From Candidatus Omnitrophota bacterium (GTDB lineage Bacteria; Omnitrophota; Gorgyraeia; Zapsychrales; Zapsychraceae), in contig JADFXT010000008.1 in NCBI GenBank assembly GCA_015233405.1, positions 11,250 to 75,249 of the forward strand: DNA of 64,000 bases. The letters run 5' to 3'. The stretch's first letter is position 1. Every line of letters begins with the position of its first letter. The notes under the pieces were generated by a model. The model was not told where the DNA came from. It saw only the letters and a list, made by a program, of their open reading frames with translations, and ran no database searches. Shown here piece by piece: positions 9,234 to 47,500 of the stretch. A program made the position numbers and the translations under genes.

Positions 9234-9297
9234 AAAACACAAGGAATTCTTTCTGAAATATCTTTTAATTGTTGTCCATGAATGTTTTCTTTGATTT

Positions 9298-9397
9298 TGT
9301 CATCCCCGCAATCCTTAGGCGGGGATCCAGAATTTTGAGAACATAGATTCCCGACCTGTCTGCCGACAGGCAGGCAAAAGCTTTCGGGAATGACAAC
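9298..9397. repeat. Two hairpin (REP/MITE-like) units between mutS and mutL.
   Basis: The units are tgtcatccccgcaatccttaggcggggatccag (9298-9330) and agattcccgac...tcgggaatgaca (9346-9397). They share the GTCATyCCCG...CGGGrATCCAG termini seen at 10477, 11337 and elsewhere. The first could double as the mutS terminator. Confidence 0.7.
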
Positions 9398-9459
9398 TAA
9401 AAGAAATAAAAACTGCATAAAAAAATAAGGACAAAAATTCTTTTAAAATTATAGAAATT

Positions 9460-26500: not shown

Positions 26501-29500
26501 TTGGTCCGCCACCCATTTTAAGAAATACGTCTGGCCTTCCGACGCGGCGCGTAAGATTTGAGCGCGATTTTCTTTTGTGAAATTACCAAGGTTTCGCGTA
26601 AAATATTTGCCCGGTGTGTGCGGAATCCTGACCGCTTCTTCCTGCGTATTCTGCGTGATCATCATCGCCCCGTTATTTCCCGACGGGACCGTTGCTAACA
26701 GCTCTTCAAAGATCTCCCATTTGATGTTACTGATATCATCTTTATCTTTCTTGTCATCCATGACCGGCATGCGTCCGTATTTCTTCTCGAACCGCACAGA
26801 CGCTTCTTCGGTTGTGATGTACATATCGCGAATGTCCCGTAGCGCCAGCCCGCCGTTCTGGAAGCATACCAGCTTCATATACTCGCCCGTCGGCTCTCTA
26901 AAGACATGGCCAATAATATTCTTGAATGTCGCCTTAAGGTTTTTCTGATTTAGATAAGTATATAAAGTAAAGGACGTCCCTAAGCTCATGGCGATCGCAC
27001 CCGGTTTAACGATCCCTTGGCCGGTCATACTGGCCGGATTATCTCCCGTCAAATTTACGACAACCGTTTGGTCAGAGAATCCGTATTTCTTGACCCAATA
27101 CGGCGCAATTTTACCCACAATCTCCGTCGACGGCTTAAGTCCGCTTAATTTTTTCCGCACGCCCGGGACCAATTTGTCTAATTGACGAAGCCAACGGCCC
27201 TTCTTGACATCCATTGCATTGGTTCCGGCTCCGTCGCCGAGATCCCACGGAAACCGCGCATCTGCAGTTAATAGAGATCCGTTATACGCGGCAATATTTA
27301 AGATCGTGTCCGTCTGATCATACGCTGCTTTATTTTCATGATAAAACCTCATGATCTGCGGGAAGGAGAATCGAAGCTCTCCCTTGGACCCGGTCAGCTT
27401 CATTAATTTTTTAGCCCCGCCAAAGAATTTCTCCAGTTGCTCAACTTCAGCCCCGGTCGTTTTATCCATCCAGATCGGCGCTGTTTCCCTCGAGAAGATC
27501 CCTTTAATCTGCTCCTCCAGCGGAAGGTTAGGATTCAAACTCTTAAGTCTTTGAGCAGCTTCCTTGTTGTAATAAACCGTGCCGTGCTGCTGGCCTGCTC
27601 CGGAAATTGCTTTAATATTCCCGACGCTCCATCCCTTCTTTGCAAATTCTTCCTTTAACACCTGCATATTTCTATCCAATGCCGCAGCCAACATCAAAGG
27701 CGAAGTGTGATTTAAGTTCGTATTCCCTTCCCTTAACTTCACTAAATACCCGTAGGGGGCGTTATACTTGGCATACTGCGGGTCTTCATATTTTTCCTGG
27801 TGAGACCAAACGATTTCGTTCTTATCCCCGTCGATAACGGTCATCGTCACCGACTGAGTACTCGAATTAACCCCTAAGAACCAGTTGTGGGAATTATTGA
27901 GATTAGACAATAACACGATCTCTGCATTATCCAGCTTGACATTTCTCGCATCTATTTCTCCAGCTTCATTAATTGATGTTTTATCGCCCAAAATGATGCG
28001 CATCGCGCCGATTTGCGTACCATGACTGAACATCACAACAGTTTTACCTTCATATTGGCGGTTCAACTTCATCAGTAGCTCTTTAGTCCTCAGAAGTAAA
28101 TCCAGATAGCTTTCGCCTTTTATCGGCCGCACAATGACGTCGCCCTCTTGACGATATCTGTTGACCAATGCCTGATCTTCGAGTGAAAGGTCTGATGGAA
28201 CTTTATTTTCCCAAACACCAAATGACCGTTCTTTAGCTAACGGCTCTTCGATAATATTGATCTTGATCCCGGTTTGCTCTTGGACATACTCGACAAACGC
28301 ACGGGCCGTATCCATGGCTCGGGTCAGCGGGCTTGCAATAACGACGATCTCTTCGCCGGCAAGGATCTTGGATTTTAATTGGGCGAATAATTTTTCTGCA
28401 GCTGCTTTGACTTGTTTCCGCCCATTTTCAGACAACTGATTGACCGCCTCATCCACGTCGCCCTGGAATGATCCCGGAGCCAGATTTTTTTCTGTCTCTC
28501 CGTGCCTGACCGCCCAGAATTCAAATCGAGGAGCGGCAACACTTGTATCATGATTACTAAATTTGGTTTTGTTCGTTCTTTGGTTGAGAAGGATCTTTCC
28601 GTCGAGATCTTTGATCGGCGTCCACATATTATCTAGAATTCTATCGAGCTTATCTTCTACCGCATCAATGTGTTTCTTCAATTTATTCTTTTCATATAAA
28701 TAGCTAAAATTCTCTGAATAATATCCTGCCGCGAAGAAAGCAGCCCCGGCAACAATGAGGATAAGGACAGGTAAAATCACCTGCGTCAAAATTGCACCGA
28801 TTCCCGTCGCGGCACTAGCCGTTGCGGTTAATCCGAATAAAACCAATAATCCGATTTTGGAAATACTTAAAGGTTTTCGCGCCTGGCGTGAATCCTTAAC
28901 TTGTGCAGGAAAATCAACAATCAATCTTAACTTTTGATTGGATAATTTGGCGAGCGCCTTCCAGAACAAACTCGGTTCAAATTTAATTCCGTTATCCGTC
29001 GAAGAAACTTCATAATTTCTAAACGTTGCAAGATATTTAAAGCCCGCCCCGCGAGATAATCCGAGCGCCTTCGTCAAAACAGAAGCACTGCTGTTTTCTC
29101 CGCCGGCCGCACTTAAACAGCTGTCAAAAAGACCAACGCTTCCACCGGCGAAATAATCTTTATAATCCTCAAGCGGCTTGGCCTCTTTTGAGCCCAAAGC
29201 CACCTGAGTGGCTTTGAAATTATTTTTCTCTTCCGCGGCTTTCATAATGATGTTACCGACGATCCCATGCGCCGATAAATACAAAAGATTCCATTGTTCC
29301 ACATCTGCCGGCATGGCTTTGATGGCCGCAACAAGCTCCTGGATGCTACTAATTGGAGAAGGAACAACAATCCTGTATCCGGATTCCTTGATGCGCTTGG
29401 CTTGTCTTTCAAAATAAGGTTCAAGGGAACCCGAACGGTAATCCGCGCGTAGTAGAAGCGCACTGCCCGCCGGAAATCTTTCTTTTAAAGAAAGCTTTTC

Positions 29501-32500
29501 GATAAACTGTTGTGCTTTTTGGTTCGGCAGATCTTCCAAGGCAACCTTGGCCATCATGCGCTTCGCATAAGAAGGCGATTGCCTAAATATCTGCGTCAAA
29601 ACATCAACAGCCTTGTCGTCGCCTTGATGCTTTAAATAAGCGATTTTTAATCTCGTCGGGAACGAAAAAATATTTTGTTTGGTCAAGACCGGCGCCCACT
29701 GCAGTATATTTAAGAATGATTTATTAAGTTTACAACTCGCAAGAAAAACCGCCAACATCGTAAGCATGGTAACCATATGGAAAATCGTCTTTGCCGACCA
29801 CCACGCTGCTAAAGAATAAAATACCCCGGCCAATAGCGAGAACGTTATGACACCAACGCTCATCATAACAGCAATGCTCGTCGTGATAAGGCCGGTTCTC
29901 TGAATGGAAGAAACCACCTGTTCCGGCGTCTGTTTAAAAACTTCTTTCCATCCAGCATTCTTTAAAGGTTTCGCCTCAATGTTTTCTGATGAAATTTCTG
30001 TCGGATTGATTGGCGCATAAACCACTTTTCCATCAGAATCAATACCAACAACATTTTCCGTAGCATCTTTCTTTTGAGCAAAGACCAATTGTCCCTGTTC
30101 ATCGATTCCCGCAAAATCACTCACCGGCAAGAGCTCTTCTTTCTTTTCTTGGCCAAAAATCATCTCTCCGTTATCATCAATGCCTATCAATTGTTCGACA
30201 GATTCGTTGGCGGGGGCCTCTTCCTGCTCTTGCCAATCCTCCACATTTGGCTCTTGCGTTTGCCCTAATAAACTCTCAATATCTCGACGGATTTCCTGCG
30301 CTTCTTCATCATTGGAGTCTCGATTAAGAGCTTCTTGTATATTTGCCAAAGCCTCGCCATATTCAAAAGATGATTCATAGAGTTTTGCTCGTTCCTTATA
30401 AACCTCAGCGTTTTGAGGATCAAGTCTTATCGCCTGATCAAAATCACTTAAAGCTTCCTCCTTAAACCCTAACTGGGCATTCATAATTCCTTTCATAAAA
30501 TGAATCTTGGCATTCCCAGGCTCAAGAGTTCCAGCTTGCGTAAAGGCCTCCAAAGCATCTTGATATTGCTCTAATTGCCAATAAGTAAACCCAAGCCCCG
30601 CGTACACCTTGGAATTCTTGAAACCTAAATCGATTGCTTTTTGAAAATCTGCCAAGGCCTCCTGGCTTTTGGACAATTCAAAATGAAGATAACCACGCTT
30701 ATAGTAAGCCCTGACATAATTCTCGTCGATCTCAAGGGCTTTATTGAAATTAAACAGCGCTTGGTCATAGTCGCCGGACTGAAAATCAACAAGGCCTAAA
30801 ACGTAATAATTTTCTGCGCCCTGGTCATTTACGCCACCGTTTAGAACAAGAGGTTTCCGCTGCTTCTCCGCTTCCAGCGCCCTTCGCTCATGAGTTTTCT
30901 TTAATCGTGAATGGAATTCTAAAGAAAGAACAAAAATGGCTGTACGGACCCAACGAAGAACTCTTTTCTTTAAAGGAAGATTATCGAGGAATGGCTTGCT
31001 CATCTTTTGAATGGACTGGCCAATATTGGCAAGCTGTTTATTACGCATCAACAATAGCCCATAAGCAAATCCCGTCAATAAACCGATCAAATGGCCAACC
31101 TGAGCAACCGGAGCTATGGAAGCATGGGCCAATATATATACCAAAGAAATAGAAATTAAAAACGTTCTCAAATATGGATTGGATCTCGTGGCAATAAACG
31201 CGGCGGTTAATGCGAAGTCGACAACAGAAAAGCCTAAAATGTTTTGGACAAGATATTTATGCAATAAAATCAGATAAAGCCCGCTAGAAGCCAAGATACT
31301 TAATAATGAGATTATCAGAATATTCTTAGCGCCCAATTTCTTTTCAACCATATTCCCAAAGAGCCACACCACCAACATATTGCCTGTAAAATGAATTAAA
31401 TTATTGTGTAAAAATGCATGTGTGACCAGCTGCCAGATATAACCAAAATGCCAAACAGCATAGGGATATAAGGCAAAAAGATGTTTCATCCCCGTCGGCC
31501 AGAACTGCTGGAGGACAAAGATCAAGGACATGGTAAGAATAAGGCCGGTCGTCGCAGGTCGGGAAACAAATCGACCGGACTTATGTAAAATAGCCGCTAT
31601 GAGAACCAGAGCGAACGTCACAGCCATCATCACCAGGGCGGTTTCATAATCAAGGCCAAAAAACGTAGCAACAGGTTTAACCACAATAATAGTATTCGCA
31701 TTGACCACGCCTCCTAAAGCCAAGACTCCAAGAAAAGCTTTAGTGAAGAAATTTCTTCCTCTTCGAGAAGCAACAGGTTTCTTCTCAACCTTATTGTTTA
31801 AAGGAAGGTCCTTTTTCCGGCGGATTGAAGTTTTTGATTTGTCAGGACGAATCGCTTTCATAATATTCCACGACAACATTGATTCGAGTGTCGCGATGGC
31901 ATTGAATATTGCATGAAGCGTGATGGACGCAAAGAGATTGCCCGTCGTATAATAAACATATCCAAGAGCTATCCCCATAAACCACTGGATAATATTTCCG
32001 ATTTTTCCATGGGCTGTTCTAAAAATATTCGTGCTATAAAGCAGCGCTAAGAAAACCCCTAACGAAAGCTGCAAACTGACATCGAAGCCTATTGCGGGCA
32101 AGAGTAAATGAAATGGCTGGTTAAATCCCCATGGGAGAATATGCGTAAATACTTTCACCAAAAGTCTAAAGATGCCGGCTCTAAAGAACATCTCCTCAAC
32201 AATAGGAGCAATAACTGCCACAGGCAATAAACCGAACAGGAAAGACCAATTGGATAGTTTGGGAGCGTCAGGTTTTTTATCTTTCTTTTCCTTGGCGAAA
32301 ATAAAATTCGCCATAACAACAACAAAACCAATCGCATTGATTATCCATAATTTATTTTGCCAAAAGAATTGCCAACCGGCCGTTATTCCAGCTCCAATAG
32401 AAAATTGACCATGAAACAGCATCCAGAAAAAGAGGACCACGATAATTGGCCGTGCCACAACAAACAAAATTGTAAAGATAGGATTATTATATTCTGTAAC

Positions 32501-35500
32501 AAAACCTCTTAAAAATAACGTTGTAAAACCTGCAACCGTCATTAAAAGGAAACCGATTCCAATATTAGGGACAGACAAAAGCGGCGCCACTTGAAAAGAT
32601 CCTGTCATGAGCCAATAAATTTCAACGCCGATAGCAACCAATATACCGACGGCCCATGGAGCAGGAGATTTCCTTATATTATTGAGGCCAGTCAAAACCT
32701 TCTTTACGTTCAACAAAAATTTCGAAGGTTTCCGAGACGATTTTGATTTAGAAATCACTTTAGTCTGTTGGACTTTCGGAGCTTTTATTAGCGTAAGCTC
32801 TTCAGACATGATGTTAAACTGTTGCAACTGCTTAACTTCACTTGGAAAGGATTTTAAGGTTCTCTGCTCGGCATTCTCATGCGATAAACCTTGTGATTCT
32901 TCAACAAATTCATGATAATTAATAGCTTTTAGTAAAGAGGCTGGATTTTCAACAGTTTGGAGTTTATTAAATACCTTAGACGAGAGATAAATCTTCAAGA
33001 CGCCACTTTCCTCAATAGCAAAGATAAAAATCTTTGGCATCGTCGGCGGAGCAGTAGCGGCAAACTTTGCTAAATAAAATTTCACGGGCTTAGAATATAA
33101 ATATTTGTCCGCGATTTCCTTGAATAATCGTTTTGGCGACGCCACCAAATGTTTCTTTGCCCAAACTAAATGCTCTTTAGTCAAATTTCCGAAATAACCG
33201 TTGGCCTCTTTTTTGTGTTCTTCCGTCGGTCGAGCAGAGGCTTTTTTCTTGAACACCTTAACCAACGCCAACCCCAACAATCCGCCGCCTAAATAACAAA
33301 CCGCCGCCCAAAAATTACTGATCCCCATTTGAGGAACGAACAAGGCGACATACGCGCCGAAGAATCCGACAAACGTTCCAACCAAGAAGCCAACATAAGA
33401 CCAAGCGTTACCCGGCAATCGAAAAGCAAAACCCTTCTTCGTAGAGAATTTAGTCCCTAAAAGCCACATAACGATGATGGACCACGTCGGGTTAAATAAG
33501 GACCCCACGGATATCATGGCATCAGAACCTTGCGGTTTATTTAAATTGAAATAATCGATTTCCGGCCAATATATCCAATTTAACGGAAGCCAGCGACGGA
33601 CCTTTTCTTTATTATTTTCTATCATCTCTTTTGTGGAAATCGGCTTGATCCATCCTCGGGACATAGCAAACTTTTCATAAAGTCCAAAAACAGCCATACT
33701 CCAAAGCACGCAAATGATTGTTGTTGCGGTCTGATTGACCAAGACCTTGAACAGCATTCCAAATACCGTCGGGTCTATAAATAAATATTGGTTGTAAAAG
33801 ACACGTAATCCTGAGGCAAACAAAAAGCCCATACAAAGAGGGATCACAACAACCATTTTCCAGAATTCCGCTTTCTTTTCACCCACGCTCAATTTTTGTC
33901 CTTTGATTTGATTAGAAACAAGACAAACAACTTCTCCGACGATGCTAAAGATCGCCATATTGACCCAAGAAGGAAATATCCGTAACGATCCCGGGAAAAC
34001 CAAAAGAACTGTGACTGTCATCATAGAAGTTAAAATCATCAGAAATATGTAGTTATGCTTCTTTAACCACGAAATCCATTTCTTCTCTATTTTTGGCTCT
34101 ACAACTTTTTGTGGCTTAGGACTCGACATCACAAGAGCGCTCTTTACATCGACGGGTTTATTATGAATTTTTGCATATCTCTCTTTTAAAGGTTTATATT
34201 CCAATATCGAAGCATAGACTTCACCGACGATCTTTCTGACCAAAGCAAAGCCTGCGCCAGATGGATTAACAGGCGACGGCTTCGGTAAAATATGAAGCGT
34301 CGTGTAAATCTGCTGCAATTTTTCCAAAGCAAATATCCCGCCGAATGTCAGATAAGCCCCAACACTCATCAAAATGCTGCGGAAAATATCTTTTTGGGCA
34401 GTCTTGATTGGATAATTCCGAATGATCCTCTGCGAATAATTCAGCGCTCCACCGACTAAACTAACCAGCAAAATATCCAAGGCGACATTGACCTTCCCAT
34501 TCGCTACAATAATGAAAAAGACAAGATAAGCCCCGACGCTCATGGCAATGCTGCGGACAATATCTTTCTTGGCGGTGTTCTTGGGATTATCTCGAAGAGT
34601 CTTCTGAGAATAATTCAACACAACAACGGCCAGGCCAATAAACACAGCAATATCCAAAATAATACTGAAAGCCATTCCATGGGAAACCGCACTGATAGGA
34701 TTAGAGACGAACACTTTAGTCGCTACAATAAGGATGCTTGATAAACCGCTCACCAATATGTCATTGGCTAACTGACGTCGTCTGATTGCGGAGGACTCCC
34801 ATTTTCCGGTTACCTTTTTATTGGCAAGTAGATTCACTCCAACATTATGAATAACCATCAATAATACCCAAGTCAAAGCGGCCCAGAACGAATACGAAGA
34901 AAAGCCTTTGCTGATGGCCATTCCTAAAAATGTGGCGATGGAGCCATAAATCATTTTTCTGTAAGTAACCGCACGGAATTTATTGTCACTATCCGGCCTG
35001 CCATTCTCGAAGAAAATGTCGGAGCTGGCCTTGAGCCTTGAGAGAATATTCTTACGATGATCTTTTTCCGACTTAGGACTAAACATCCCTGTCAGATAGG
35101 CAATGCTCTTTAGATTAAATAGATTTTTTGTTAATACACTAGTAACGAAGTGCGGAATGTGAAGAAAAACTTCAAGGTATTCATGGAGGCTGATGGTCTT
35201 AAGAATTTCCAGCGTCATCGGGCGAGTGCGGTCTTCGGAAACAATCTTTGTAGCAGAAGATAACACAATTGGATCACTATCAAACTTCGATTGAGAGCAA
35301 AATTCAGGCGAGAAATAAATCTTTAAGGTACCGCTTTCTTGAACAGCAAAAATAAAATCGTTGGGTAGGCTCGGCGGTGCAGTAGCGGCAAACTTCGCCA
35401 AATAAAACTTTACCGGCATACCAAATAAAGAAATTCGGATATTACCAAACAATTCCTCTGGCGATATAACCATGTTCATTTTAACCCACGCCAAAAGTGT

Positions 35501-38500
35501 CTTTGTCAAATTCCCAAAATATCCATAGCTCTCCGCCGGGTTCTTTCTCGACGAGTTATTATCCTGGATTGGCTTATTAGGATTCACGACTTTTAAGCTA
35601 TATTGTTTACCGGAATCCCCTAGATCATCCACAAAAATAGATCTTTTACCCGCCACGGCTTTCCAGAAGGCAAGCGCGTCTTTATAGATATAGGTGCTGG
35701 TGATCTTAGAAACCTTTAGAGTATTAAATGCGTATTGCTTGATCTCATTAAATAACCTGGTTCCAATTCCACGGCGTCTGTGATCCGGATTAACAGCGAG
35801 CGTCATAATAACCACATCATCAGACCTGACATTGAATTTGGTAAAACCAACAATTTTATTATTCTGGTCGACGGCAAATCTGGCATTGGCGTCAAAATAA
35901 TTTGTATACGGGAGAGAAACTCTATGAAGCACGCTTGTCTTTTGGGCCCACTTTGTTAAATTGTCCCAAGCCGCCTCAACTTCTTGTTGACTCATGATCG
36001 TATTAAGATCTTTGGGTTCCACAATCCTGACGGATGCTCCTGTTACAGATTGAATGACGATATCAGCGGATTTCGTCGAGATCTCCTCTTCTTTCTGAAC
36101 CGCATTCTTCCTTTGCTCCGTAATCTCCGTCGCCTTTTGTTTTCCTTCCCCATTAGACATTAACGAGCCCGCCAGAAAAGAAGACAACGCCAAATCAAGA
36201 TTACCCGCTAATCCAATATCGCCAGCTTGCCGTGTACCGTTCATGGAATGTCTTGCCCCACGGGCAGAATCAAGCGCACGCACTGACATACGGACGAGAT
36301 ATTTTCCTCTTGCTAAATGCGGACCGCTTAAGAAAACCCTGCCGCTGCCGGCAGAAACGCGGATTTGCTGACGACGAACAAGCTGTCCTGAAAGGTTAAA
36401 GACTTTGACATCCAGATCTGCCGGCTTCGCCAAAACGTATCTGACTTCTATCGTGCTGCCGGATAGGTCATAGCGGACAATGATATTGCTGGGAACCAGC
36501 GAAGAAGAATTATCCAAAGTCGGTGTTTTCTTCCAGGCGTTCTTAAGCGTTGTATAAACAGCTTTCTCTTGCCCGTCGATCGTAAGAAGCCCATAATATT
36601 CTTCATTGGAATAACTATCATACGGCACACCGTTGTTCGCAGCGCCGCCTGCATCCTGCTGCGACGGATTTCCGGCTTTCCACCACTCATCACGCCACTC
36701 CATGAAAGTCACGCCGATACACGTATCTTTATATTTATTGACCTCGGTCCAAATATTTTGGACCGCCTGGGCCTGTGCGGCCGCATCAGCTTTGCCGGTC
36801 TGGTTGTTATAAGAATCCGTCCCGGCCTCCGAGAAATACATGCCTACATCTTTGCCAAGCTGGGATTTTAAAGTCTGCCACTGGGTAAAAATATTGGTGC
36901 CGCCGTTACGTTCACCGGCCGGGTCATCCCATCGATACACATTGATTCCCCAAATATCCACACTCGGGCATTTTTTGACCACATCCAGCGTCGGGATCTC
37001 TCCGTGGGCCGTTGCCGTCGGATGATTTGCATCATTAGCTTTTGCATAAGCCGCAGCCGTTTCAAGCTCCGTATACCAATTATTAATGTCGTTACTAAAC
37101 CATTCCGGATGAAAATTGTATTCATTCCCGAATTCCCAGAACAGGACCGCCGGGTGGCTCTTATAATTCGTAATAAAAGTTTTATAGCCGCCGTTATAAA
37201 TGTCCGGCCCGGGAACGGTGCGGTCATCATTGTGCGGAATATTAAAAATCAAGAATATCCCGGCGGCGGCAAAAGCATCCAGAACAGTTTTATCCGTTAC
37301 AGGAAAATAAAGGCGGACCGCATTGACGCCCATATCGACCATCTTGGCGATATCCGTGGAAAGATTGGTGAAATCATAACCGTCTTTATAAGTTTTTCCT
37401 TTAGCCACCGGTGAATAAGTGACCCCGCGGATCTGGGTCACGACGCCATCAATAAGAAGTTTCCCGCCGCTTTGTTTGACGACTCGCGGACCAGCAGCAG
37501 CCAAGGTCTTTGCCGTGGCAGAAGTTTTCGTTCCAGAAAAAGTTAGAAAAGCCAGGCCGGCGCCCAACGCACTTAAGAATCCTCGACGGGAAACAGGCTT
37601 CTTGTCAGCTTTGGGGGTTTCAGAAATTGTTTTGTCAGCCAGAGTAGAAGCTATGGACTGCTCATTTTTCGCGTTTAGATCTTTTATCGCAATCGGGAAA
37701 AGAGGCGCGTTGACTAAATCAAACCGGAAGCTATCTTTCTCGCCAGCTTTCTTAAATCCAAGACCAAGCCAGAAGGAATCGTTGACGGAGTTTTTAATAT
37801 CAAAATACGAACAGCCCAGGTCTTTGGATATGGCAAGCCCCAAAAGTGCGAGCGCACCCCCCAAATGTTTCTTGCGTAGGGCTAAATCGTAAACCTCAAT
37901 GGCATTGGTTCCTTGTTCATAACCATAATTAGCGAAACCAGGATTGAAATAAAAATATCCGGCCATCTGCTTTTGATCGTTAAGATAAGCAAAAATGGCA
38001 TATGTTTGATTTTCGGGAATGCTGCTTAGCGTCTTTAATTCAAAACGGACAACTGTTCCGTCGGTCGCCTTGAGTGACAACTCGCCATTCGCCAATAGAA
38101 TTCGATCAGCGTCAATCGGAGTCATTTCTCCAATGACGACCTCTTTGTCCACCAAAGACAATAAGGTAGAAACTTGTTTCATAAATTCAGAACTGGGCGA
38201 CGATATGCCCATACTCTCTATGGAAACAACTTTGTCCGGGAAGATCTTATTTAATAACTCCTTAATCGTCCCTATGGCTCGCCGGGATTCCGGAGAATTA
38301 CGCTTTTCTTCGCTATTGGCAATCTCTAAAGCCTCAGCCAAATACGGCACCACACGAATCCATCTCTCGCTCATCTCCTCAGAGGAATAATTTTTGATTA
38401 CAGAATCCGCCTTCTTCTTAAGCGGATTAACAAATTCTATTTCCCCATCTACAACGATCGGCCAATACTGTAAAGTTTGGAAAGGAGGATTGCCTCTGGT

Positions 38501-41500
38501 ATCCAGATCGCGCAATAATCTTCGCATCAAGCGCAATTCCAGAGGAACATCGACAAAGATCTTTTCTATCGGAGCATCTTTCACCTCTTCTGTCACCGTC
38601 GGAGAAAGCGCATAAAGCGATTCTAATAATAATGTTCCGTTTCTAGGCACTGAAACAATTCTCCCAGAATGCCTCTTACTCTCGTGTTTCTCAAAATCAA
38701 ACGAAGGTAAATCGACTTCTTCGCCATTCATCAAGCGCCCAATATCTTCTTTGGCCCATTCGAGGTGAATAGCCCCCGGCGAATCCCCATTCGGGCTGCC
38801 ATCCGCCAACGTTGGCCATTCGGCTATATTTTTATAATACCAATCTAAAGACAACAATAAGACCGGGCTTCCGGATTCTTCAATCTCTTTCACTTTCTTC
38901 TCGGCTAAAGTCGTTTTTCCGCTTCCGCTCGGTCCACCGATGATGATCACTTTGCGGGTATTCAGCGCGGAATTCTTAGATGCGGAGTTCTTCTTGTCCC
39001 AATTTTTTCCTAAAATAATCTTTTTAAACCATTCAAAACCTTTATATCCGAAGAATAACCCCATCGCAAATCCACCGGCGTTATAAACACCGCTGGCCAA
39101 TACTTCCCCTGTTTTGGCCAGTATATTAAGGTCCCCTATCGAGAAGTCCGTCAAAGACATCATGATGCCAAAAGAAATGTTGACGAAAATAGCTCGACGA
39201 GCGATACTCCAGAAGTTTTCTTTCACAAATTTCCAGCTTAATGATTTTTCTTCATCCTGAAGAGACTGATAATTAATAGTGAACACAGCGTTCGCTGCCA
39301 GAATAAACCAAATCATCCCGAGCCCAAACAGAAAAGAGCCAAAAGACGTCATTGCGTTAATAGCGACAACAGCTCTCGTCACTGTTTCCGCATTAGCTAG
39401 AGCACCGGACAACAAGATAAAGAAAGGAACCAAAAATACTAATTTTTTGGGCGATAAAAAGGACGGAATTTGTGAAAGCGCTTTCCATGAAGATAAAAAT
39501 AAAGATTTTGCATCTCTACAAATTTCCGGCGCGAATAAAGAAGCAGGGAAAGAATACAACGTAACATCCTTAGTCTCTGCTTGAACTTGGGTTTCTTTAG
39601 AAACAGGCAAAGGATTAATTTCCTTCAGGACTTTCTGATATTCTTCGTCGACAACATGGCGGATTTCATTAAAATCTTTGATCGAATTAATTTTCGCTGC
39701 CAATGCGCGAATTGACTCATCGTTTTCTTTTTTGGCAATCTCAGTCAAGAAACCAACTAAAAGAGTTTTTGCCCTTGCTTTATAATCATCAGACTTTACC
39801 CCGCTTTGAGGAATGTGGATGCCGAATTCTAGTGCATAATAACCAAGAAGGGTATTCAGAGTGCTCAGATATAATTCATGACTTAAACTATTATAAAGCG
39901 TAAAATTACAAAAATCCTGCGCAGCGATAACCGCCTTCTGATAAAGATTCTGTTGGCTTATGGGCCGGCCCTTTAGTGCGTCATCGATACGCCGTAAAAC
40001 CATTGGATCACGGAGCATCTGAATTGAGACCATAACGCCATCGCATCCTGTTTCGAGCATTTTGACCGCATCATCCGCCGAAGAAATATCGCCGTTACCA
40101 TAAATCAGCTTATCCGGGAATGCCTTCTTAAGCCGCTCTAAATAATCCCATTTTGCTTTGGCTGTCTGCGCTTTCTCGAATTTTCGTGGGACATCATAAA
40201 TTTCAAACTGTGTGCGGGTATGTAAAGTGATCCAATCCGCTCCGGCTTCAAAAAGTTTCTCAAAAAATTCACGCGTCGCTTCTTCATCCGGATTATGCGA
40301 ATCGTCTTTAAATAATATCCTTGTTTTAACGCTGACCGGTATTTGGACATGGGCTTTGACCTCTCTAACGATACGCGCCGCCAATTCAGGTTGATAGGTC
40401 AAACCAATTCCGCCAGTAATCTGCTTACCTTCAGGAATCCCCTCAACTTTAACCATTATTTTTTGATTAAATAAAGGAACGCAACCCATATTAATATCTA
40501 TCGCGGAGGCACCTTGCCGCTGGGCAATCAAGGCCGCTTTGACAAAATATCCTACGATTTTATCTTCGCTATCAAAAATCTGTTCCTCATTAAGCTCTTC
40601 AGGAAGGCTGTGGGGACCTGCAAGCTGAATGATCACATATCGTTCAAGGCTTGAAATATCAAGACGAGGTAAACCAGTTTTCCAGTCCGCATCAAACGAA
40701 AAACGCGGATTATAAAACGGTTTAGAAAAAATATTTCCAATACGAACCAAATCCGACTCAGTCATGAAATCGGCTTCGGAGCCTAAAAGCGCCCCAAGTA
40801 ACACCCTCTTGGCAACAACCGTCAATAGATCAACCGGCCCAGAAATTTCCTTTGGCATATTTTTATTTATTATTCTTTCAACCAAAGATTCTCTTCGCAT
40901 CCATTTGATCTTTAAAAATTTCCGTCTCTTGACAGGAGCTGATTGAATCTGGTATCCCCAATTAGAATTAAAATCTGTAAATTCTACAGTTCTTAGCTCT
41001 TTCTCGGGCATGCCAAAAATACTAACTATTTGAAGCGTTCTTGTCGGATTAGGAATAAAAAACTCCAAGAAATACTCAGACCCCTCTTTGGAAACACGGG
41101 CGGGAAGTGTAGTGTTCACATTCCCCAAAGATTTAAATCCAAACTTTCTGATGACCTGGGCATAAATATTACCTTCAAAATTTAATAGCTGTTTTGCCTG
41201 CTCCTTAAAAAACCTCAGCGGAATCTTTATGCGGAGAGCATCATATGAATTTCCAGTAGATACGACCTTAGTATCACCAAGTTGCATAATGCGACACGAA
41301 ATCGCTTCTTCTTTAGCTGTTAAGATTTCGGGGAAATAGTCCTTGTTGTCCTTTTTCAGGGCCTCACGCAAAATCGAAGATAAACGATCTCGAATCAAAA
41401 GAGGCACTTTAGTGGAAACTTCACTCCACTTCGCTTCTGGGATATCTAAACCATTAAATTTAATCATAAAATCAACTGCTAAACGTTTTGGCTCTAAAGT

Positions 41501-44500
41501 AATCCGAACAAATCTATTAGGTGTTAAATAATGATAAACATATATTCCCGCATCATTATTTGATGGAACCTTTTCTACCTTGACATCGAGAGGCGCCGTA
41601 AAGCTCATGCCAGCTTGACAAGCCGACGTCGTCCATGAACGTTCAAGTTTCGACATCAGATCAGGATTCTTCTTCAATATACCTATGATGTTAATATTTT
41701 TGCTGCCCTTGCCCTTGACATTGAATTCCTCATGGGCGTGTCCCCATGTATTAGGAGCACTCATACATCCTTCAAAGCTCACAGCCTGTTCATGACTGAG
41801 CCCTTTAACGGTCTCTAAATATTCATGTTCGGCGATTCTTCTTTGATCTAATTCAGAATCTTTTGCATTTAAATCAGGATGGTTCTGCAGAAATTTGTCA
41901 TATTCAGAAGAGGAAAGAACAACTTTAAGAAGACTGTTACTGGACTGAAAGGCCCCAAAACAAAAATCCTGAGGAACATTGAGCGCCGGCGGAGCATTGG
42001 CCGGATAAGCCATGCGATAAAATTCAACGTTGATTTTCTCCTCGCCGAAGTTCGATGATATGGATTCAAAAACCTTGGTGAGGTCACCAGGATTAAGCTC
42101 AACTTGCTTACGTAAGAACGTTACCTGGTCTGAATTAAGATTTCCATTTAGGCCAAAACGATTAGCCGAAGGCGCCTTTCCTGATTGCTGATAAGGCAAC
42201 TCTGGCTGATCCATAACCTTATTATCTTTGGCCGCAACTTCTATTTTCTCCTCTAGAAATTCCCTTACCCGTTTAAAACGCGCTTGAATTCCTTGTTTGG
42301 GTGAGACGCTGTAAAAGATTTTTATAATCTTTTTAATTCGATTAGCATACGGCGTAAAACTTTGATCGACCCTTTGCCGGATATCCATGGCTTTCCGCAA
42401 GGTGTGGCTATAATTTTTTCCCTCTGCGCGTTCGCGCAAAGCCATATCAAAAACATGAAACTCTGGGCTCATATCCCGAGGATAACCGGTTCCCGAATAA
42501 AGGGCTTCAGCTTCTTTAAGGAATATGTCGTACATGTTAAAACGCACAGCGGTCAGGATTAACTGCATTTGGATCGCCGCCGGGAACATATCGGTTTCAT
42601 AAAGCTGAATTTTCTTAACCGACTGATATAAAGAATCAAAGGCTTTTTGCGCCAATCCGTTTAATCCGAGCGATTTCAATCGTAAGAACAATTTTCCGGA
42701 TATGACCCAGATGTTATGCAATAAATCCCGGGCGACCAAAGTGTAGTTCTCTCGGTTAATTACTCCAGCCGCTTCCTTCGCCCTAACTTCTTCCCAAAGA
42801 TTGTTTAATGTTCTTTCTTGCGCAAAAGCGTCATCAACGATTCGGCTATATTTTAAAACAAAATCCTGGCGCATTTGTTTCTGCAAGAATTCTTTCATGG
42901 CTCCAGGTTTTCCAATAATGATGTCGGAAATCGTCAGGAAGTTATTATCCAAATCCCGAATCTTACGGTCACGGACAACAATATCATTTGAATCATAAAC
43001 ATTAAACCAGCAGAACTCACTGACGTAATAAAGCAAAGCGGCCAATTCTTCTTTTCTGGCTGTCTTAAGATATTCCGCCGAGAAATAAGCGGTAAACCGG
43101 CTGCGGCCGCTATGGACCATGGAAATCAAGTTTTGAATCGGATCTGAACAAATTGGTTTAGCTTTCATATCCAACTCTACAACGGTCAAGATTCCCCGAA
43201 CCTGTTTTACAATTTCGCTAACCACCCCGACCCCGAGGCGCGGAGCGACACTTTCCAAATAATCCAACGCTTCTAAAATTTTCTGAGCGCTAGTACTCTT
43301 CGTTCTATCTTCGGGCTCCGTTTCCCCCAAAGTATGATTAAGATTTTTCATATAATAATGATCATACCCATAAACAATGCCCTTACCGTAAGCGCTGACA
43401 ATACTGTTACGGGTCTGGCGAATCTGCGGATTTGTGACAATAACTTCCTTATTCCCATAATGAGACATGTAGAGGTCATAAATATGTCCGGAATATTGAG
43501 GTATCATTCCAAGTTCGTGGAATAATAAACCATAAAAATTGAGGGAAAACGGTTTATCTCCCTTAAGGGCTTCACCTTTAAGGAAGTTCTCTTTAAAATA
43601 TGCCTCCTGATTCAAGATATCCGTAATAGCTTTTTCTGGCCCATATTTTGCAATTAGTCGACGGGAATTATAAATAAAACTATCCATGTTCGTAAAATCC
43701 CGGCTTAATCGGTCAAATAACAAATCTAAAAGATCCGTCTTACTCAAATTGCCACGGCTTAACACACCCGCCAACCCTTCCACATCGCTGATGCTTGAGA
43801 AATCCTTCTCAATTTTCTTTTCTGCCGCCGGAGATTGAACATCATCGCGCTGTTGAGGAACACCCATTTTGCGAATCTCTTCCAATTCTTTCCCAGCGGT
43901 GCTCATAGAAATAATGATGTCAAATTTTTCCCCGTTAAGGCTGCGGATTTTGTCCTCTATCAGCTGTTCGGTATTAGGCCCAAGCTTGAAACTATTGACG
44001 GGCACATTTTTACCAGTCCTCTCCTTTTGCTCAAGCAGGACTAATCGAATCGTTTCCGGCGCGGAAAGGAAGGCCTGGGCCTCTCTTAAAGTCATCTTGA
44101 CCGCTAAACCTTTCTCCGCTGTGATCGTCACGCGAGGTAATATATTTCGGTGATCTTTTAAGAACGCCGCCAATGCTTTTGTGACATATCCATAATCCGA
44201 TTCGCCGAAATAAATCAAGTTTCTAATATTGTTAAATTCCGCATTCTCCGTCAGTATTTTCAAGTGGGAATTGCCGCCGGTAGAATCCATGCCGATGACC
44301 TGCTGATACAACTTAAGAAGAATGAGCTGAAATTTGAATTCGAAAACGGAATTTGTGCTGATCGCGTCAAATTCTTTGACGACTTCCTGATCCTTATAAA
44401 AGACTTTTTCTATGAACTCCAACTGGCCTAAGTTAATCTTGGAAAGTGTGGTCCCTCGTTTAATGAGAATTTCATATAATCCGGAAACCTCTCCAGCCAT

Positions 44501-47500
44501 CCCGAGAACTTTTCCAACATTTCCGGCATCGAAAGAAACAGTCTTAGCTGCGTCTTTGATCGCATAACGCGCATACTTCCTGACCAATTCATATGACGGG
44601 CCGTCATAAGACAAAAGGGCCTTGGCCTTCTTGGATAATATTTCGAATTTAAAGTGCCGGCTGCCGGTAAACTTGCTGATGACGTTAAGGTCATAATCGA
44701 AATCGGTGTTTTCAAACATTCGACCAGCTTCGATAATAAAGCTCCTGGCCTGCGCCTTCCAGGCCGTCACCTCATTGGTCCGATCATAAGCTTTGACATG
44801 GGCTTCTTCGTGGATTCTGATTTGATTGAGATATTCTTCTGCGGCGGAATAAACTTTAAGTTTCTTTTCTTTCAATAAGGCCTCAACCGCTTCCACAAAC
44901 ATTTCTTGGGTCAAGCCGTTGGCCCATACCCAACTATCACCAGCGGAGCGGGCAATATCGAATTTGTTGATGTCCGGCGGAACCGCAACTTTATTGGATG
45001 CGACGAGCCATTGGATAATAGTGCGCAGATCGTCAGCCAATAACCCAAATTTCTCTCTGACCATATCAGAGAACCGTTTCTGTTTTGCCGCCTCATCCAT
45101 TGAATCAGGATTGATCGCCTGGAATTTGATCTGTTTAATTGTTTGAAGCTTTTCTTTAATATTTTTCAGTAATGCTTTCTCAGCTTCGGTTAAAACAGAT
45201 TCGCGCGCTTTAAATTCCACTTGCCCATATAAAAGAGTTGCCAAAGGTAGCGGCACGGCATAATCGGACGCGATTTGAGGGCTTGTTAATTCTTCCCCGC
45301 GGCCTTTTCTCTGCTCAATATCTTTTTCTATCTCAGCAATATTAAGGAAACGATCATTTTCTTCTTGGTGAGGATCAAAATCATACCGGCTGACCCCTCG
45401 TCTATTTAATCGCGGTTCTAAGTCGAGCCCAAAAAGCCGAAGTAATCGATAGGTAATGTTGACATAGACTTTTTCAATTAAATGGCTGAATTGATAAATC
45501 GTCATCGTCGGGCTGTTGAGGCTATATTTGAGGGCAAAATTAGAAACATCCAAAACTCGTCGATGATGATAATAAACTTCTTCCCTTGGAAAATTAAGCG
45601 GGTCAAACTGCCAGAGCCATCGGCTGCGGCGAAGGATCATATATTTAACCAAAGCAGGATGATTGGTCATGCGGGCATGAATGTATATGCTGCCGCGACC
45701 ATTGTTCCAGACATTTCCGCGCAAAAGATTATGCGTCGACGGAACAATCTCAATTTGCTTCAAATAAGCAAATACCGCAAGCACGTCTTTATCATTTTTG
45801 CGAACAGCCTCGTCGCGCAATTCCTTTAATAGATAATCTGCTCTTTCTTGAGGTGTCAGATTAAAATACTCAGCGCCATATTTGGTAAAAAGACTATGAG
45901 CAATTCTCGAGATATGTTCGTTGAAATTGAAAACGCCGCTGACAACCATAGACCCGCGGTGGAACACATAACGCGTCATATTTAAGAAAAACGTGCCATA
46001 AAATAATGCAGCAATAAAGAGATTGTTCATCGGTAAGAGATGGACGGCAACATAGTACGTCAGAATATACCCTAGGATTTCTCCAACAAAGTTAATGCCG
46101 CTAAACACATTGACGCTGATCTTTTTTGCGAATAATAATTTCTTTGTGATTTCGCTGAGGAAAATAATGTGCCAATCATACAATATCGGCCCGCGTAAGA
46201 CGGATAAGACAATCGCCAGACGGGTTAAAAAGGACAACCGCGGCATAGAATTACGGTGAACATTTGAGTAAAATTTAAGGGCGTTTTCCAGAGCCATGGT
46301 TAAAGGAACATCTTTGTCATTCATAGCCGCGGTTTTATCATTAACGCTCTTTTCGACGGCATTCACAAGTTCCTGGCTGGAACTCTTAGAGGTCAAGACC
46401 AATTCGTGGCTGGCATTGATGACATAATCATAAAGGCCTTGTTTGATATCAAACGACATTTTCTTAAAGAACGCGTCGGGGATCATGACGGCAGCGCGTA
46501 AACGGGCAATGAGAGTTCCCCATCCTTTTTGTTCGGTTTCCCGGGAGACATATCTGTTTTGAGCGGTTTTCCTGTCCGTAATAACACCGACTTTCCGTGT
46601 CTCAGCTAAATCCCTAAAAATATACGAAGACAGCGCGCCTTCAATGACCAGAACCATGCCTTTAGTTAAGACGGCATCCGGCCCTTCCGACAAACCGTTA
46701 TCACTCCTTCCCAAATATGAGTTCCTGAGCGCCGCAACTTTACCAATGGCTTCCTGAGGATTTTGATTAAGGGTTTTCCTGGACTTCGTCAACCAGTTCA
46801 TAAAATCGTTGATTTTCCGGCCATCGAAAATCGCAGCATAGACCAAAGCCTGGATAAAATTCAGAAGCTTGATCTGAAGCTGCTTGATCGGCGATAAAAC
46901 AAAGTATAATAAAACCAAAACAGCGGCCATCGGTGCAAACAATAGCGGAAGCTTGCGTTTTAAGAACCAGTCTGATTCCAAATGCAACGTCAGATATCCT
47001 TGCGCTTGAAGATATCGTCTGAAATTATATGATAAGCTGGACTTTCCACTTCCCGGCGTACCGTCAAAAATAAACACAGGAACATCTGGGCCTTGAGGCA
47101 GGCCTTTAAATAATTGGTCAAACACCTGCGCTTCTTGCTTCAACTGGTTCGTTTGGGCAGCCAAAGCATTTGTTTCATTGCGTTCCTTCTCGTGGATATC
47201 AATTTGACGCAAGACCCAACTGATTTCATTAGGTAACAAACTGAAAGTTTTTAAGATTGTAACCAGTTCTTTACGTTTGGCAGGGCCCCAGGTGCTGTTA
47301 TCGGCAATGGGCGTATTAAGAACAAGTTCTGTTTCACCGGCAGATAATTGAAGTCTGATTTGTTCATCCGTAAGACCAAATATCGACGGAGGAGCTTTGA
47401 TATGGCCGGATTCTATCAAATATTTGAGAGCGACCTTAAACAAGATATTTCCAAGCCTCATCAAGGAATTGTAAACATAAAATTCTGTCTTATGTTGACC

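Follow-up and report, generated by a model that had tools for sequence, protein, structure and literature searches.

The locus described here raises the question of how what looks like a complete secreted enzyme came to lie in the middle of one continuous reading frame, and of what its targeting signals might do there. The window, by which we mean the whole stretch of 64,000 nucleotides that was analysed, comes from the MAG of an uncultured Omnitrophota bacterium and encodes a MutS that is 100% identical to MBF0522593.1 of Candidatus Omnitrophica bacterium. It also contains a giant ORF on the minus strand, in which the first base of residue n is at 63766-3(n-1), and since the frame is unbroken as far as window base 64000, the true protein is longer than the 17,397 aa counted here. 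Pfam tiling covered this ORF with more than 20 unrelated families, including PPDK, dCMP deaminase, M50, LOG, HEAT, Dus, uridine kinase (twice), GNAT, Rce1, rhomboid, TPR, His-phosphatase, FGGY, MDH, Bac_transf, RPE, adenosine deaminase and radical SAM/SPASM, and a hydropathy scan gave about 62 hydrophobic segments. RR was seen ahead of five hydrophobic segments across the ORF, with about two expected, which is unconvincing as a general enrichment. The ORF is of a known kind, the Omnitrophota multi-enzyme giant protein of at least 10,000 aa with many enzyme families and TM helices. [quoted passage not shown] 2023, bioRxiv 10.1101/2023.11.21.568195) likewise have Omnitrophota hosts and ORFs of more than 10,000 aa, join unrelated enzyme Pfams and many TM helices in one frame, and share the GNAT, radical SAM, HEAT, TPR and glycosyl-hydrolase content. 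In neither of the two papers did a term search return twin-arginine, Tat, T9SS, sorting domain or fusion. Giant Omnitrophota proteins are known, and the cassette bears on how they were assembled in evolution and are threaded through the membrane. No close relative of the whole giant ORF was found in the protein, genome and metagenome databases searched, a genome scan with the MutL from the window gave no relative, and the repeated 'HE' modules had no match in Pfam or PDB, their AF2 model (pLDDT 37.7) being useless.

The cassette comprises aa 8722-9165, at 36272-37603 on the minus strand and in frame within the giant ORF, exactly where a sequence-only reading had placed it; on the plus strand the same interval gives a translation full of stops. 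Its order is KKPVSRRGFLSALGAGLAFLTFSG...AKTLAAAGP, FGNEYN (E8882), FSEAG (E8980) and a beta-rich tail ending GKYLVRMSVRAL (Table 1). That reading took it for an entire exported protein in mid-ORF, and database comparison agrees, as the cassette is the full equivalent of a precursor made of a leader, a clan GH-A glycosidase and a T9SS-type beta-sandwich. Stand-alone proteins of 408-446 aa, with the architecture leader, clan GH-A barrel and T9SS sorting domain, cover 85-95% of the cassette in matches of E = 1e-103 to 1e-74, a similarity that chance cannot account for, and the alignment is collinear from the signal peptide through the C-terminal sorting domain. A metagenome scan with the cassette returned GH matches at 41-45% and nothing closer.

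Table 1. Positions in the window of the giant ORF, the parts of the cassette and the flanking modules
Feature	Positions	Residues	Strand	Basis or remark
Giant multi-enzyme ORF	11573..64000	17,397 aa from GTG at 63766	-	Frame open to window end
Uridine-kinase module	38132..38974	8265-8545	-	Upstream of cassette; cytoplasmic in type
Linker or domain	37604..38131	8546-8721	-	Between uridine kinase and leader
Leader-like segment	37487..37603	8722-8760	-	Sits where homologues have the signal peptide
Twin-arginine consensus S-R-R-G-F-L	37574..37591		-	Same motif, same place in P0243 (SRRDFI) and P0294 (SRRSFL)
Clan GH-A (beta/alpha)8 glycosidase domain	36512..37486	8761-9085	-	AF2, Foldseek, PDB profiles, invariant catalytic residues
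Acid/base	37121-37123	E8882	-	N8881-E8882 just after beta4 (model strand 153-158)
Nucleophile	36827-36829	E8980	-	In beta7 (model strand 254-261)
Degenerate T9SS type-A sorting-domain remnant	36272..36484	9095-9165	-	HMM matches, AF2 beta-sandwich
Weakly hydrophobic segment IGLAGNLDLALSSFLAGSLMS	36155..36217	9184-9204	-	Candidate stop-transfer/return segment, uncertain
GNAT acetyltransferase module	35663..36016	about 9251-9368	-	Downstream of cassette; cytoplasmic in type

Two of the three neighbours that had been assigned to the cassette were recovered by Pfam: the upstream uridine kinase (PRK, E 1.9e-16, aa 8273-8463) and the downstream GNAT (Acetyltransf_1, E 2.6e-12, best stretch aa 9285-9355, with weaker GNAT models from about aa 9251). 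The third, a GNAT upstream at aa 8546-8721, was not, as this stretch had no Pfam match even at E <= 10, nor relatives in the protein database. A protein search with both flanks of the cassette joined returned two weak uridine-kinase matches and nothing else, so that it gave no orthologous giant genes with which to compare the junctions.

The glycosidase assignment held for the fold and the catalytic residues. In the AF2 model, residues 40-360 form a (beta/alpha)8 barrel of eight strand-helix units, mostly with pLDDT above 90, and the two glutamates proposed as acid/base (GNE) and nucleophile (SE) are placed as expected for the clan. Furthermore, the N and E of GNE and the E of SE(A/T)G are invariant across 121 sequences. 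The best Foldseek matches were barrels of GH158, GH157 and GH2 (E down to 2.6e-19), and PDB profile searches gave GH2 6ncw (E 5e-11) and GH158 9oro (E 8.5e-11, covering just profile positions 71-207). As in the GH158/GH157 endo-beta-1,3-glucanases and the GH2 barrel (PDB 9p26, 6pal, 9g5g, 6ncw), the acid/base is at beta4 and the nucleophile at beta7, and in those enzymes the barrel is often followed by an Ig-like domain. By structural comparison the closest families appear to be the beta-1,3-glucanases GH158 and GH157, together with the GH2 barrel, although the identity in these matches is 12-18%, so that no CAZy family is assignable; Pfam GH2_C and GH72 score under their cutoffs on the cassette. 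Homology, fold and catalytic residues were thus observed directly, and the catalytic barrel is intact and probably active as a glycosidase.

The beta-sandwich tail is a different case. Its resemblance to T9SS sorting domains, part of the sequence-only reading, was supported: the excised tail scored 23.1 bits with TIGR04183 (cutoff 23; 20.1 bits inside the cassette), covering profile positions 11-59 of 72, an HMM built from 15 homologues matched aa 9117-9161 (E 4.4e-5), and AF2 modelled a beta-sandwich with pLDDT of about 80, falling below 50 past model residue 447. With PF18962 the tail reached 15 bits against a cutoff of 27. What did not stand is its completeness, as RYDLSG replaces the YPNP motif, nothing corresponds to the terminal K-[IV]-[IV]-x strand, and about 8,230 residues follow in frame. 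Because it is internal and truncated, and because no T9SS is known from the host phylum, the sorting domain is a decaying relic, probably without a secretion role. PMC5445135 gives the T9SS as restricted to Bacteroidetes.

The same GH module is found in at least 10 other Omnitrophota-type giant ORFs, and it is the sole part that these have in common with the window. In ten of the best 80 genome loci it lay in an ORF without a stop from end to end of the 7-13 kb locus, and each of the ten has the label of an Omnitrophota or a 'Planctomycetales' MAG; 73 other genome loci carried it as a stand-alone gene, and it was internal in proteins of at least 1000 aa in 43 of the best 150 database representatives. 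The cassette is no curiosity of one gene, as giant Omnitrophota-type proteins have been built with this module repeatedly. Among the embedded copies compared, the window copy alone carries the sorting-domain remnant.

As for its origin, that reading had offered a gene fusion as one option, and end-to-end collinearity with the stand-alone precursors makes whole-gene fusion the best reading and a well supported one. Besides the collinearity with the 408-446-aa precursors, it is supported by P0243, an embedded copy that keeps a Met immediately ahead of SRRDFI, by the near-full-length Pfam matches of other modules in the giant ORF (MDH, PRK, rhomboid, His_Phos), and by an in-frame duplication, in which the uridine-kinase module recurs at 19061-19906 (846 nt, 89.5% identity). 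The ancestor would have been an ordinary secreted-enzyme gene with leader, catalytic barrel and T9SS sorting domain that was built in frame into giant proteins, and the window copy would be the least eroded example, with both ends of the old precursor still visible. The same order is seen in the Bacteroidota T9SS type-A cargo glycosidases (for example P0001 and P0006, 'T9SS type A sorting domain-containing protein', Salinivirgaceae), which share leader, GH-A barrel and C-terminal beta-sandwich and are 35-44% identical over the whole length. In these cargo proteins of 408-446 aa the leader is of Sec type, and the sorting domain is complete and forms the true C-terminus. The window copy, by contrast, lies inside a longer chain behind an RR-type leader, and its sorting domain no longer has the YPNP motif or the last strand.

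The likeness to cargo proteins could also mean that the window copy was captured separately and recently from a Bacteroidota-type T9SS cargo gene, with a history apart from the other embedded copies, which we consider improbable. It would explain why the sorting remnant is restricted to the window copy, and nesting of this copy within the embedded clade indeed requires many losses of the sorting domain, a point against the explanation that we prefer. In the GH domain, the window copy is as close to the nearest embedded copy (51%) as to P0001 (52%), which is a stand-alone T9SS cargo with Bacteroidota-like surroundings, and with best identities of about 50% nothing recent is visible. The G+C content of the cassette is the highest in the ORF (0.491 vs an ORF mean of 0.428; rank 1/340 among 444-codon windows). 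Codon positions 1 and 2 account for this, and the GC3 is not extreme (rank 28/340), so that the composition is not strong evidence for recent transfer. The phylogeny, which was distance-based (NJ with bootstraps, quartets and signature columns) and has long branches, favoured the embedded grouping: the stand-alone set was separated from the embedded copies in 145/150 bootstraps, the window copy was sister to P0243 in 126/150 and was grouped with embedded copies in 161/200 of another NJ run, 91% of quartets supported this grouping, and 8 of 15 diagnostic columns show the embedded state in the window copy. In addition, the window copy shares its RR leader with embedded copies and not with P0001-like genes. 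Recombination between embedded-type and Bacteroidota-type GH was rejected, as throughout the domain the window copy is no closer in identity to P0243 than to P0001, or the reverse.

Translation of the cassette alone from an internal start, which would yield a normal precursor with a free N-terminal signal, is extremely unlikely. P0243 has an in-frame ATG exactly ahead of SRRDFI, and Shine-Dalgarno sequences seem to be used rarely or not at all in the lineage, so a missing one is not decisive. In the window, however, there is no ATG, GTG or TTG from 80 codons upstream to the RR motif, and the nearest later start, the TTG of residue 8734, is within the h-region and past the RR. No usable start codon with a Shine-Dalgarno sequence was found near the leader, promoter-like and terminator-like sites are at chance level, and no stop codon follows the sorting domain.

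The leader lies at least 8,721 residues into the ORF, not at a free N-terminus. Its basic n-region leads into the motif S8726-R-R-G-F-L8731, 15 residues rich in Gly and Ala form the h-region, and A8750-T-A8752|K8753 lies in a basic c-region. The RR is 1 residue ahead of the h-region, and K8747, K8753, R8761 and K8764 follow it. The h-region, GFLSALGAGLAFLTF, has a hydropathy of 1.75 over 15 residues and 1.09 over 19, and in both length and hydrophobicity it falls short of a classical TM helix. These features correspond to the Tat pattern, with its S/T-R-R-x-F-L-K-type motif, moderately hydrophobic h-region and A-x-A c-region, and the strict motif occurs once in the 17,397 aa, with about 0.1 expected by chance as estimated from residue frequencies. 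The description of the segment as twin-arginine-like is strengthened by comparison with other internal leaders. The leader in the window scored below the cutoff of the curated Tat profile TIGR01409 (11.2-11.4 bits vs 16.7), and those of P0243 (the sister embedded copy, MSRRDFI) and P0294 (a third embedded copy) passed it with 17.9 and 24.3 bits; the two proteins in which these HMM-passing Tat-type leaders precede the hydrolase module are 1,977 aa and 5,056 aa long. Conservation of the RR is likewise divided. The strict motif is present in these three embedded copies, whose GH domains are about 41-51% identical. It is missing from every one of 196 copies in which the GH is N-terminal, for the most part stand-alone enzymes, and all 120 best-scoring homologues of the first search (<=640 aa, mostly stand-alone) have Sec or lipoprotein leaders. 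The recurrence of the embedded module and of internal RR leaders is in this sense a direct observation.

The explanation that we prefer as a whole, and regard as moderately probable, is that of a captured GH-A module with a relic sorting domain and a leader that acts as an internal export signal. The leader, probably no dead fossil and most likely an internal start-transfer or export signal, would insert N-in, the glycosidase would be moved to the outer face of the cytoplasmic membrane, and a downstream hydrophobic segment would return the chain, so that the neighbouring kinase and acetyltransferase modules would remain cytoplasmic. For topology and export route we infer, from the twin-arginine form, the low hydrophobicity and the basic c-region of the leader, that handling may be of Tat type, as in dual Sec/Tat membrane proteins. 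If the leader inserted and the return segment did not, the acetyl-CoA-dependent GNAT would end up outside, which speaks against this explanation, and the candidate at aa 9184-9204 has a 19-residue hydropathy of 1.31 (under the usual 1.6), contains Asp and Asn, shows no positive-inside bias and has an AF2 confidence below 50. Hydrophobic segments are present at analogous positions in L005, P0243, P0254, P0282 and P0294, among which that of L005 is clearly transmembrane-like.

In a rival reading, which we judge somewhat unlikely, the leader and sorting domain are inert remnants of a fused gene, the chain stays inside, and the glycosidase works or idles in the cytoplasm. The leader is weakly hydrophobic and under the Tat cutoff, no convincing return helix precedes the GNAT, and the sorting domain is clearly decaying. 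Furthermore, the leader slot is free of hydrophobic segments in 32 of 42 embedded copies, so the module can do without one, and L004 and L007 have no TM-like segment in 2,359 and 3,095 residues, respectively. Against this, the remaining 10 of 42 exceed the 3.6 expected (about 2.8-fold, P about 0.001), and canonical Tat motifs in three copies of such low mutual identity, with none among the N-terminal-GH copies, are unexpected without selection. In addition, clear hydrophobic segments bracket the GH in L005, P0282 and P0294; in L005 a strong TM helix stands on either side of it, with PALP and glucosamine-6-P-isomerase-type modules as flanks, and in P0294 the order is two TMs, RR leader, GH and TMs. 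Every stand-alone relative is extracytoplasmic. A cytoplasmic glycosidase beside a kinase and a GNAT might, for instance, act on imported oligosaccharides.

The segment might also be processed, if the inserted leader were cut by signal peptidase I at A8750-T-A8752|K8753 which would sever the giant chain and free a new N-terminus for the piece with the glycosidase. The Bradyrhizobium FbcH cytochrome b-c1 precursor is reportedly split at such an internal signal peptide. In the window the A-x-A site is 7 residues past the h-region, P0243, P0294, P0282 and P0266 have AFA, LAA, AYA or ALA sites behind their leaders, lipobox-like LSGC and NSSC occur in P0280 and P0254, and cleavage of giant proteins was raised as a possibility by West-Roberts et al. 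(bioRxiv 10.1101/2023.11.21.568195). The A-x-A motif is, however, short and common, and the architecture is explicable without cleavage; we regard this processing as quite unlikely. Such processing would refine the internal-export explanation and is no alternative to fusion.

With regard to mechanism, the statement that export signals normally work only at a free N-terminus proved too strong, as Tat-dependent transmembrane segments inside a chain are documented (PMC5449189, PMC3471235), and the Tat-dependent integration of internal TMDs that are weakly hydrophobic and carry positive charges on their C-terminal side is an established mechanism (PMC5449189). The polytopic dual Sec/Tat proteins (actinobacterial Rieske Sco2149, Sco3746, polyferredoxin; Keller 2012, PMC3471235; Tooke 2017, PMC5449189) resemble the window in an internal RR before a segment of low hydrophobicity, in positive charges after it, and in upstream TM helices or cytoplasmic parts that are made first; P0294, with two TMs and then an RR leader, shows the same likeness. 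They differ in the exported domain, which in every dual Sec/Tat protein known is the C-terminal one and has a bound cofactor (PMC5449189), a redox cofactor in the proteins named, whereas the putative exported domain in the window is a mid-chain glycosidase without cofactor motif. More than 8,000 residues follow this glycosidase, so that, unlike in dual Sec/Tat proteins, a return segment would be needed. In a more specific form of the internal-export explanation, which we consider unlikely, internal twin-arginine leaders would be working topogenic signals in large and giant multi-enzyme chains. Once the cytoplasmic modules were made, Tat, or an abortive-Sec-then-Tat handover, would export the glycosidase, already folded and without a cofactor, in the form of an internal loop, with the leader as start-anchor and the downstream helix as return. 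We know of no protein for which Tat membrane integration of an internal folded loop has been described. In Tat-integrated C-tail-anchored proteins, Tat inserts a signal, a folded domain and a C-terminal anchor, and in FbcH, as proposed for the window, an internal signal sequence starts the export of a downstream domain, FbcH being then cleaved. These proteins are two-part and of normal size, whereas the loop proposed for the window would lie inside a chain that exceeds 17,000 residues.

The cassette is a readable intermediate in which a whole gene, targeting signals included, was captured in frame, and after capture the catalytic barrel and leader-like segment have been kept while the T9SS sorting domain decays. 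The recurring Tat-type leaders before the hydrolase module lead to a concrete topogenesis hypothesis for giant proteins, which, if true, would extend the small class of internally Tat-targeted membrane proteins and explain how chains of 5,000 to 100,000 residues put selected hydrolase domains outside the cell membrane. In the giant-protein papers (bioRxiv 10.64898/2026.06.07.730766, 10.1101/2023.11.21.568195), internal signal calls in four proteins of at least 100 kAA, which had been run in pieces, were suppressed as chunking artefacts; where a pipeline removes internal signal-peptide calls from giant proteins, real features may be lost.

The sequence-only reading placed the cassette correctly and read the sequence there as it stands; the cassette lies on the minus strand, and the plus-strand translation of 36272-37603 is full of stops. 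It consists of the leader KKPVSRRGFLSALGAGLAFLTFSGTKTSATAKTLAAAGP, a domain with the motifs FGNEYN (E8882) and FSEAG (E8980), and a beta-rich tail ending in GKYLVRMSVRAL. The suggestion that an entire exported protein is embedded here was borne out by a search of 5.8 billion proteins, in which stand-alone proteins of 408-446 aa matched the cassette end to end (E = 1e-103 to 1e-74, 85-95% coverage). The alignment runs from the signal peptide of these homologues through their last strand, and the T9SS sorting domain PF18962 is present in many of them. The glycosidase (GH) assignment also held, as 121 sequences without exception have the catalytic N-E and the second Glu. Furthermore, the AlphaFold model of the cassette (mean pLDDT 78) shows a (beta/alpha)8 barrel (residues 40-360, mostly >90) with a C-terminal beta-sandwich (about 80), E8882 being just past beta4 and E8980 within beta7. 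The best structural matches of the model were GH158, GH157 and GH2, in agreement with a PDB profile search. No more than 12-18% of residues are identical to those of solved structures, so that membership of clan GH-A is established and that of a CAZy family is not.

The C-terminal tail, which had been likened to T9SS-type domains, does contain a sorting-domain remnant, but this is incomplete and internal. With TIGR04183, the excised tail scored 23.1 bits (cutoff 23), over profile positions 11-59 of 72 only, and the Pfam sorting-domain model reached 15 bits against 27; our own HMM, built from 15 homologues alone, located the domain with an E value of 4.4e-5. Alignment to the homologues showed that the YPNP motif and the terminal strand have been lost, and about 8,230 residues follow the remnant in frame. 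The sorting domain of the cassette is a relic. Our HMM and domain checks found no sorting domain in any other embedded copy, that is, a GH internal to a larger multi-enzyme protein, and therefore the window copy looks like the least eroded member, apparently a transitional form linking enzymes secreted through T9SS to bare embedded modules.

The giant ORF around the cassette has 17,397 aa when counted from the GTG at its listed start. Its frame is without a stop over 63767-64000, up to the window edge, and its PPDK_N Pfam match begins only at profile position 62; thus the real N-terminus lies outside the window and the listed GTG is not the true start. Residue numbers used here are offsets from 63766. 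The ORF is tiled by Pfam models, most with near-full-length matches (PPDK, dCMP deaminase, M50, LOG, HEAT, Dus, uridine kinase, GNAT, Rce1, rhomboid, TPR, His-phosphatase, FGGY, MDH, sugar transferase, RPE, adenosine deaminase and radical SAM/SPASM), and about 62 hydrophobic segments are scattered among the modules. The window MutS is 100% identical to MBF0522593.1 of a 'Candidatus Omnitrophica bacterium' MAG. The giant ORF is of an already known kind, the Omnitrophota giant proteins classed as 'multi-enzyme metabolic cluster', and relates to Archaeovorins, among whose content glycosyl hydrolases are known (West-Roberts et al. 2023, bioRxiv 10.1101/2023.11.21.568195). Term searches of that paper and of Nielsen & Lui 2026 (bioRxiv 10.64898/2026.06.07.730766) showed that the words twin-arginine, Tat, T9SS, sorting domain and fusion occur in neither, and in one of the two, internal signal calls had been suppressed as chunking artefacts for the four proteins run in pieces. 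Two things are new here: the anatomy of the precursor is preserved, and Tat-type leaders recur internally before the GH module.

The GH module recurs widely. Scanning genomes, one per species, with the alignment of the family gave 535 relatives. Among the 80 best loci are ten where the ORF with the GH stays open from one end of the 7-13 kb locus to the other; six of the ten are labelled Omnitrophota (including Ca. Gygaella obscura) and four 'uncultured Planctomycetales'. When four metagenome loci were added to the best 80, the 84 loci examined included 73 stand-alone genes of 282-467 aa, mostly from Bacteroidota and Kiritimatiellota records, and one ORF of 630 aa. Searched exhaustively with HMMER, 1.84 billion representatives yielded 1,597 relatives; among the best 150, 43 have at least 1000 aa and 22 at least 2000 aa, with the GH internal. 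The GH is all that the window ORF has in common with the other embedded-GH proteins. The block order around the GH differs between L001 and L003, both Omnitrophota giant ORFs: a 67%-identical block is downstream of the GH in L001 (aa 2366-2645) and upstream of it in L003 (aa 1575-1857), a pattern that appears to reflect modules shuffled between related giant genes. As for the flanks of the cassette, Pfam confirmed the uridine kinase upstream and the GNAT downstream, and the GNAT claimed upstream had no Pfam support even at E <= 10. The uridine-kinase module is itself duplicated in frame with sharp boundaries (846 nt, 89.5% DNA identity, 87-91% protein identity), one copy being followed by the cassette region and the second by another, unannotated stretch, which is evidence of a recent duplication at module level within the giant ORF. 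The GH-only sharing, the L001/L003 reordering and this duplication together argue that these proteins are built and rebuilt from gene-sized modules.

The window copy groups with embedded copies in 161/200 NJ bootstraps. In a larger data set, the homologue P0243 is its sister in 126/150 bootstraps, with the stand-alone set separated in 145/150; 91% of quartets join it with embedded copies, and of 15 diagnostic columns it has the embedded state in 8 and the stand-alone state in 3. The P0001 group, stand-alone T9SS cargo in a Bacteroidota-like context, is intermediate. The placement among embedded copies is only moderately supported, because it comes from distance methods with long branches. The window GH shows no trace of recombination, since its identities to P0243 (51%) and P0001 (52%) are equal along the whole domain. 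That the cassette might be a fusion fossil was right as to its origin, the in-frame capture of a complete secreted-enzyme gene being well supported, and as to the sorting domain; the leader, judged on sequence comparison, is probably not just a fossil. Separate translation of the cassette from an internal start is unlikely: no in-frame start codon was found from 80 codons upstream up to the RR motif, the only later start within the scanned range falls inside the h-region, after RR, and promoter-like and terminator-like sites are at chance level. The G+C of the cassette is the highest among 444-codon windows of the giant ORF (0.491, where the mean is 0.428; rank 1/340), mainly from codon positions 1 and 2 (GC3 rank 28/340).

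The leader has an exact S-R-R-x-F-L match, and the strict motif occurs only this once in the giant ORF. The h-region is Gly/Ala-rich (15 residues, hydropathy 1.75) and the basic c-region contains A-T-A|K. The twin-arginine-like character that had been noted therefore stands as regards the consensus, but TIGR01409, a curated Tat leader HMM, scored only 11.2-11.4 bits, below its cutoff of 16.7. Conservation of RR among relatives was mixed: the 120 homologues that scored best in the first search all have Sec or lipoprotein leaders in place of RR ones, but two embedded copies have an RR leader. P0243, a complete 1,977-aa gene, has ...VKQ-MSRRDFIGNLFKAAGVVGVAAVVGPRAFA-N... at residue 834, immediately N-terminal to its GH and with the old initiator Met still kept. 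In P0294 (GCA_019309025.1), a complete 5,056-aa multi-enzyme gene, two TM helices are followed by SISRRSFLRTAAVAVAGLVTAPSVLA-AEE, the GH and further TM helices. These leaders score above the TIGR01409 cutoff (17.9 and 24.3 bits, respectively). The strict Tat motif was found in 3 embedded copies versus 0/196 copies with an N-terminal GH (Fisher probability about 0.01, hand calculation). In addition, a hydrophobic 15-mer is present in the 65-residue leader slot of 10/42 embedded copies, and so missing in most, versus an expectation of 3.6 when each protein serves as its own background (P about 0.001); among these segments, some look Sec-like (P0282, P0266) and others lipobox-like (P0280, P0254). 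In P0243, the closest relative of the cassette, TM-like segments after the GH lead to a processive GT2 (Glyco_trans_2_3) synthase domain in the same chain, an arrangement reminiscent of polysaccharide synthases that are paired with a periplasmic glucanase.

From comparative patterns only, the best reading of the cassette leader is that of a putative internal signal for start-transfer or export, exapted and possibly of Tat type. At the L005 locus, two strong TM helices bracket a GH flanked by a PLP-enzyme module on one side and a glucosamine-6-P-isomerase-type module on the other. The cassette and its flanks might be laid out in the same way, as kinase, leader, GH with relic, weak hydrophobic segment and GNAT. 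The candidate return segment is weak (hydropathy 1.31) and contains Asp and Asn; if it did not work, the GNAT would be on the wrong membrane side. Membrane integration by way of internal TM segments that depend on Tat, are low in hydrophobicity and carry positive charges on their C-terminal side is already established as a mechanism (PMC5449189, PMC3471235), and in known dual Sec/Tat substrates the exported domain is C-terminal and cofactor-binding, whereas the window GH is internal and cofactor-free (PMC5449189).

Coordinates of the cassette, the giant ORF and other features in the window
Feature	Window position (nt)	Strand	Residues (aa)
Giant ORF	11573..63766	minus	17,397 aa from GTG
Cassette	36272-37603	minus	8722-9165
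Sorting-domain remnant (hit of our own HMM)			9117-9161
Candidate return segment			9184-9204
Uridine-kinase duplicates	38132-38974, 19061-19906		8265-8545, 14621-14902
Repeated HE module	35105-35614		9385-9554; also 7178-7340, 10162-10310
HE motifs			1286, 2795, 6319, 7314, 9528, 10285, 15631, 16126, 16544
Double LOG duplicates	53978-55210, 49727-50968		2853-3263, 4267-4680
Second RR-type segment	52556-52657		3704-3737
Partial MDH copy	about 25616-26125		12548-12600, 12663-12716
Second large ORF	1-4706	minus	at least 1,572 aa

Several other features of the window were observed. A module of ~130-160 aa with a hydrophobic-H-E-x-x-H/E helix is repeated between enzyme modules of the giant ORF, in which HExxH occurs 5 times versus 0.29 expected (one being the M50 active site) and HE[YF]xE 4 times versus 0.14 expected. 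The context G-N-L..., F-Y, A-x-A-P-P and L-K-I-Y recurs in several copies, and P0294 has a similar segment (VVYIHP...ILYHELISH). No Pfam or PDB match was found for this module, whose AF2 model had a pLDDT of 37.7; it may represent a zincin-like domain that serves as a spacer or in processing. The double LOG (Lysine_decarbox/SLOG) module represents an older in-frame duplication (45-64% identity). A second RR-type signal-like segment, LKRKSLFGRRFFLSSIMAASLVLLFSSEMRAASA, precedes a small unannotated domain of ~150 aa and then TM helices. A degenerate partial copy of the MDH N-terminus is located just upstream of the full MDH module, which still starts M-K-V-T-V-T-G-A-A-G-Q-I-G, presumably a typical MDH N-terminus. 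The second large ORF extends past the start of the window. Its N-terminus bears a signal-like segment, and the stretch that comes next, LPAP...PAVIKGIKIFPDNPLRFDFI, appears, by eye only, to resemble the P0243 N-terminus LPEP...ALLKGIRIDPTNPLNLTFYI.
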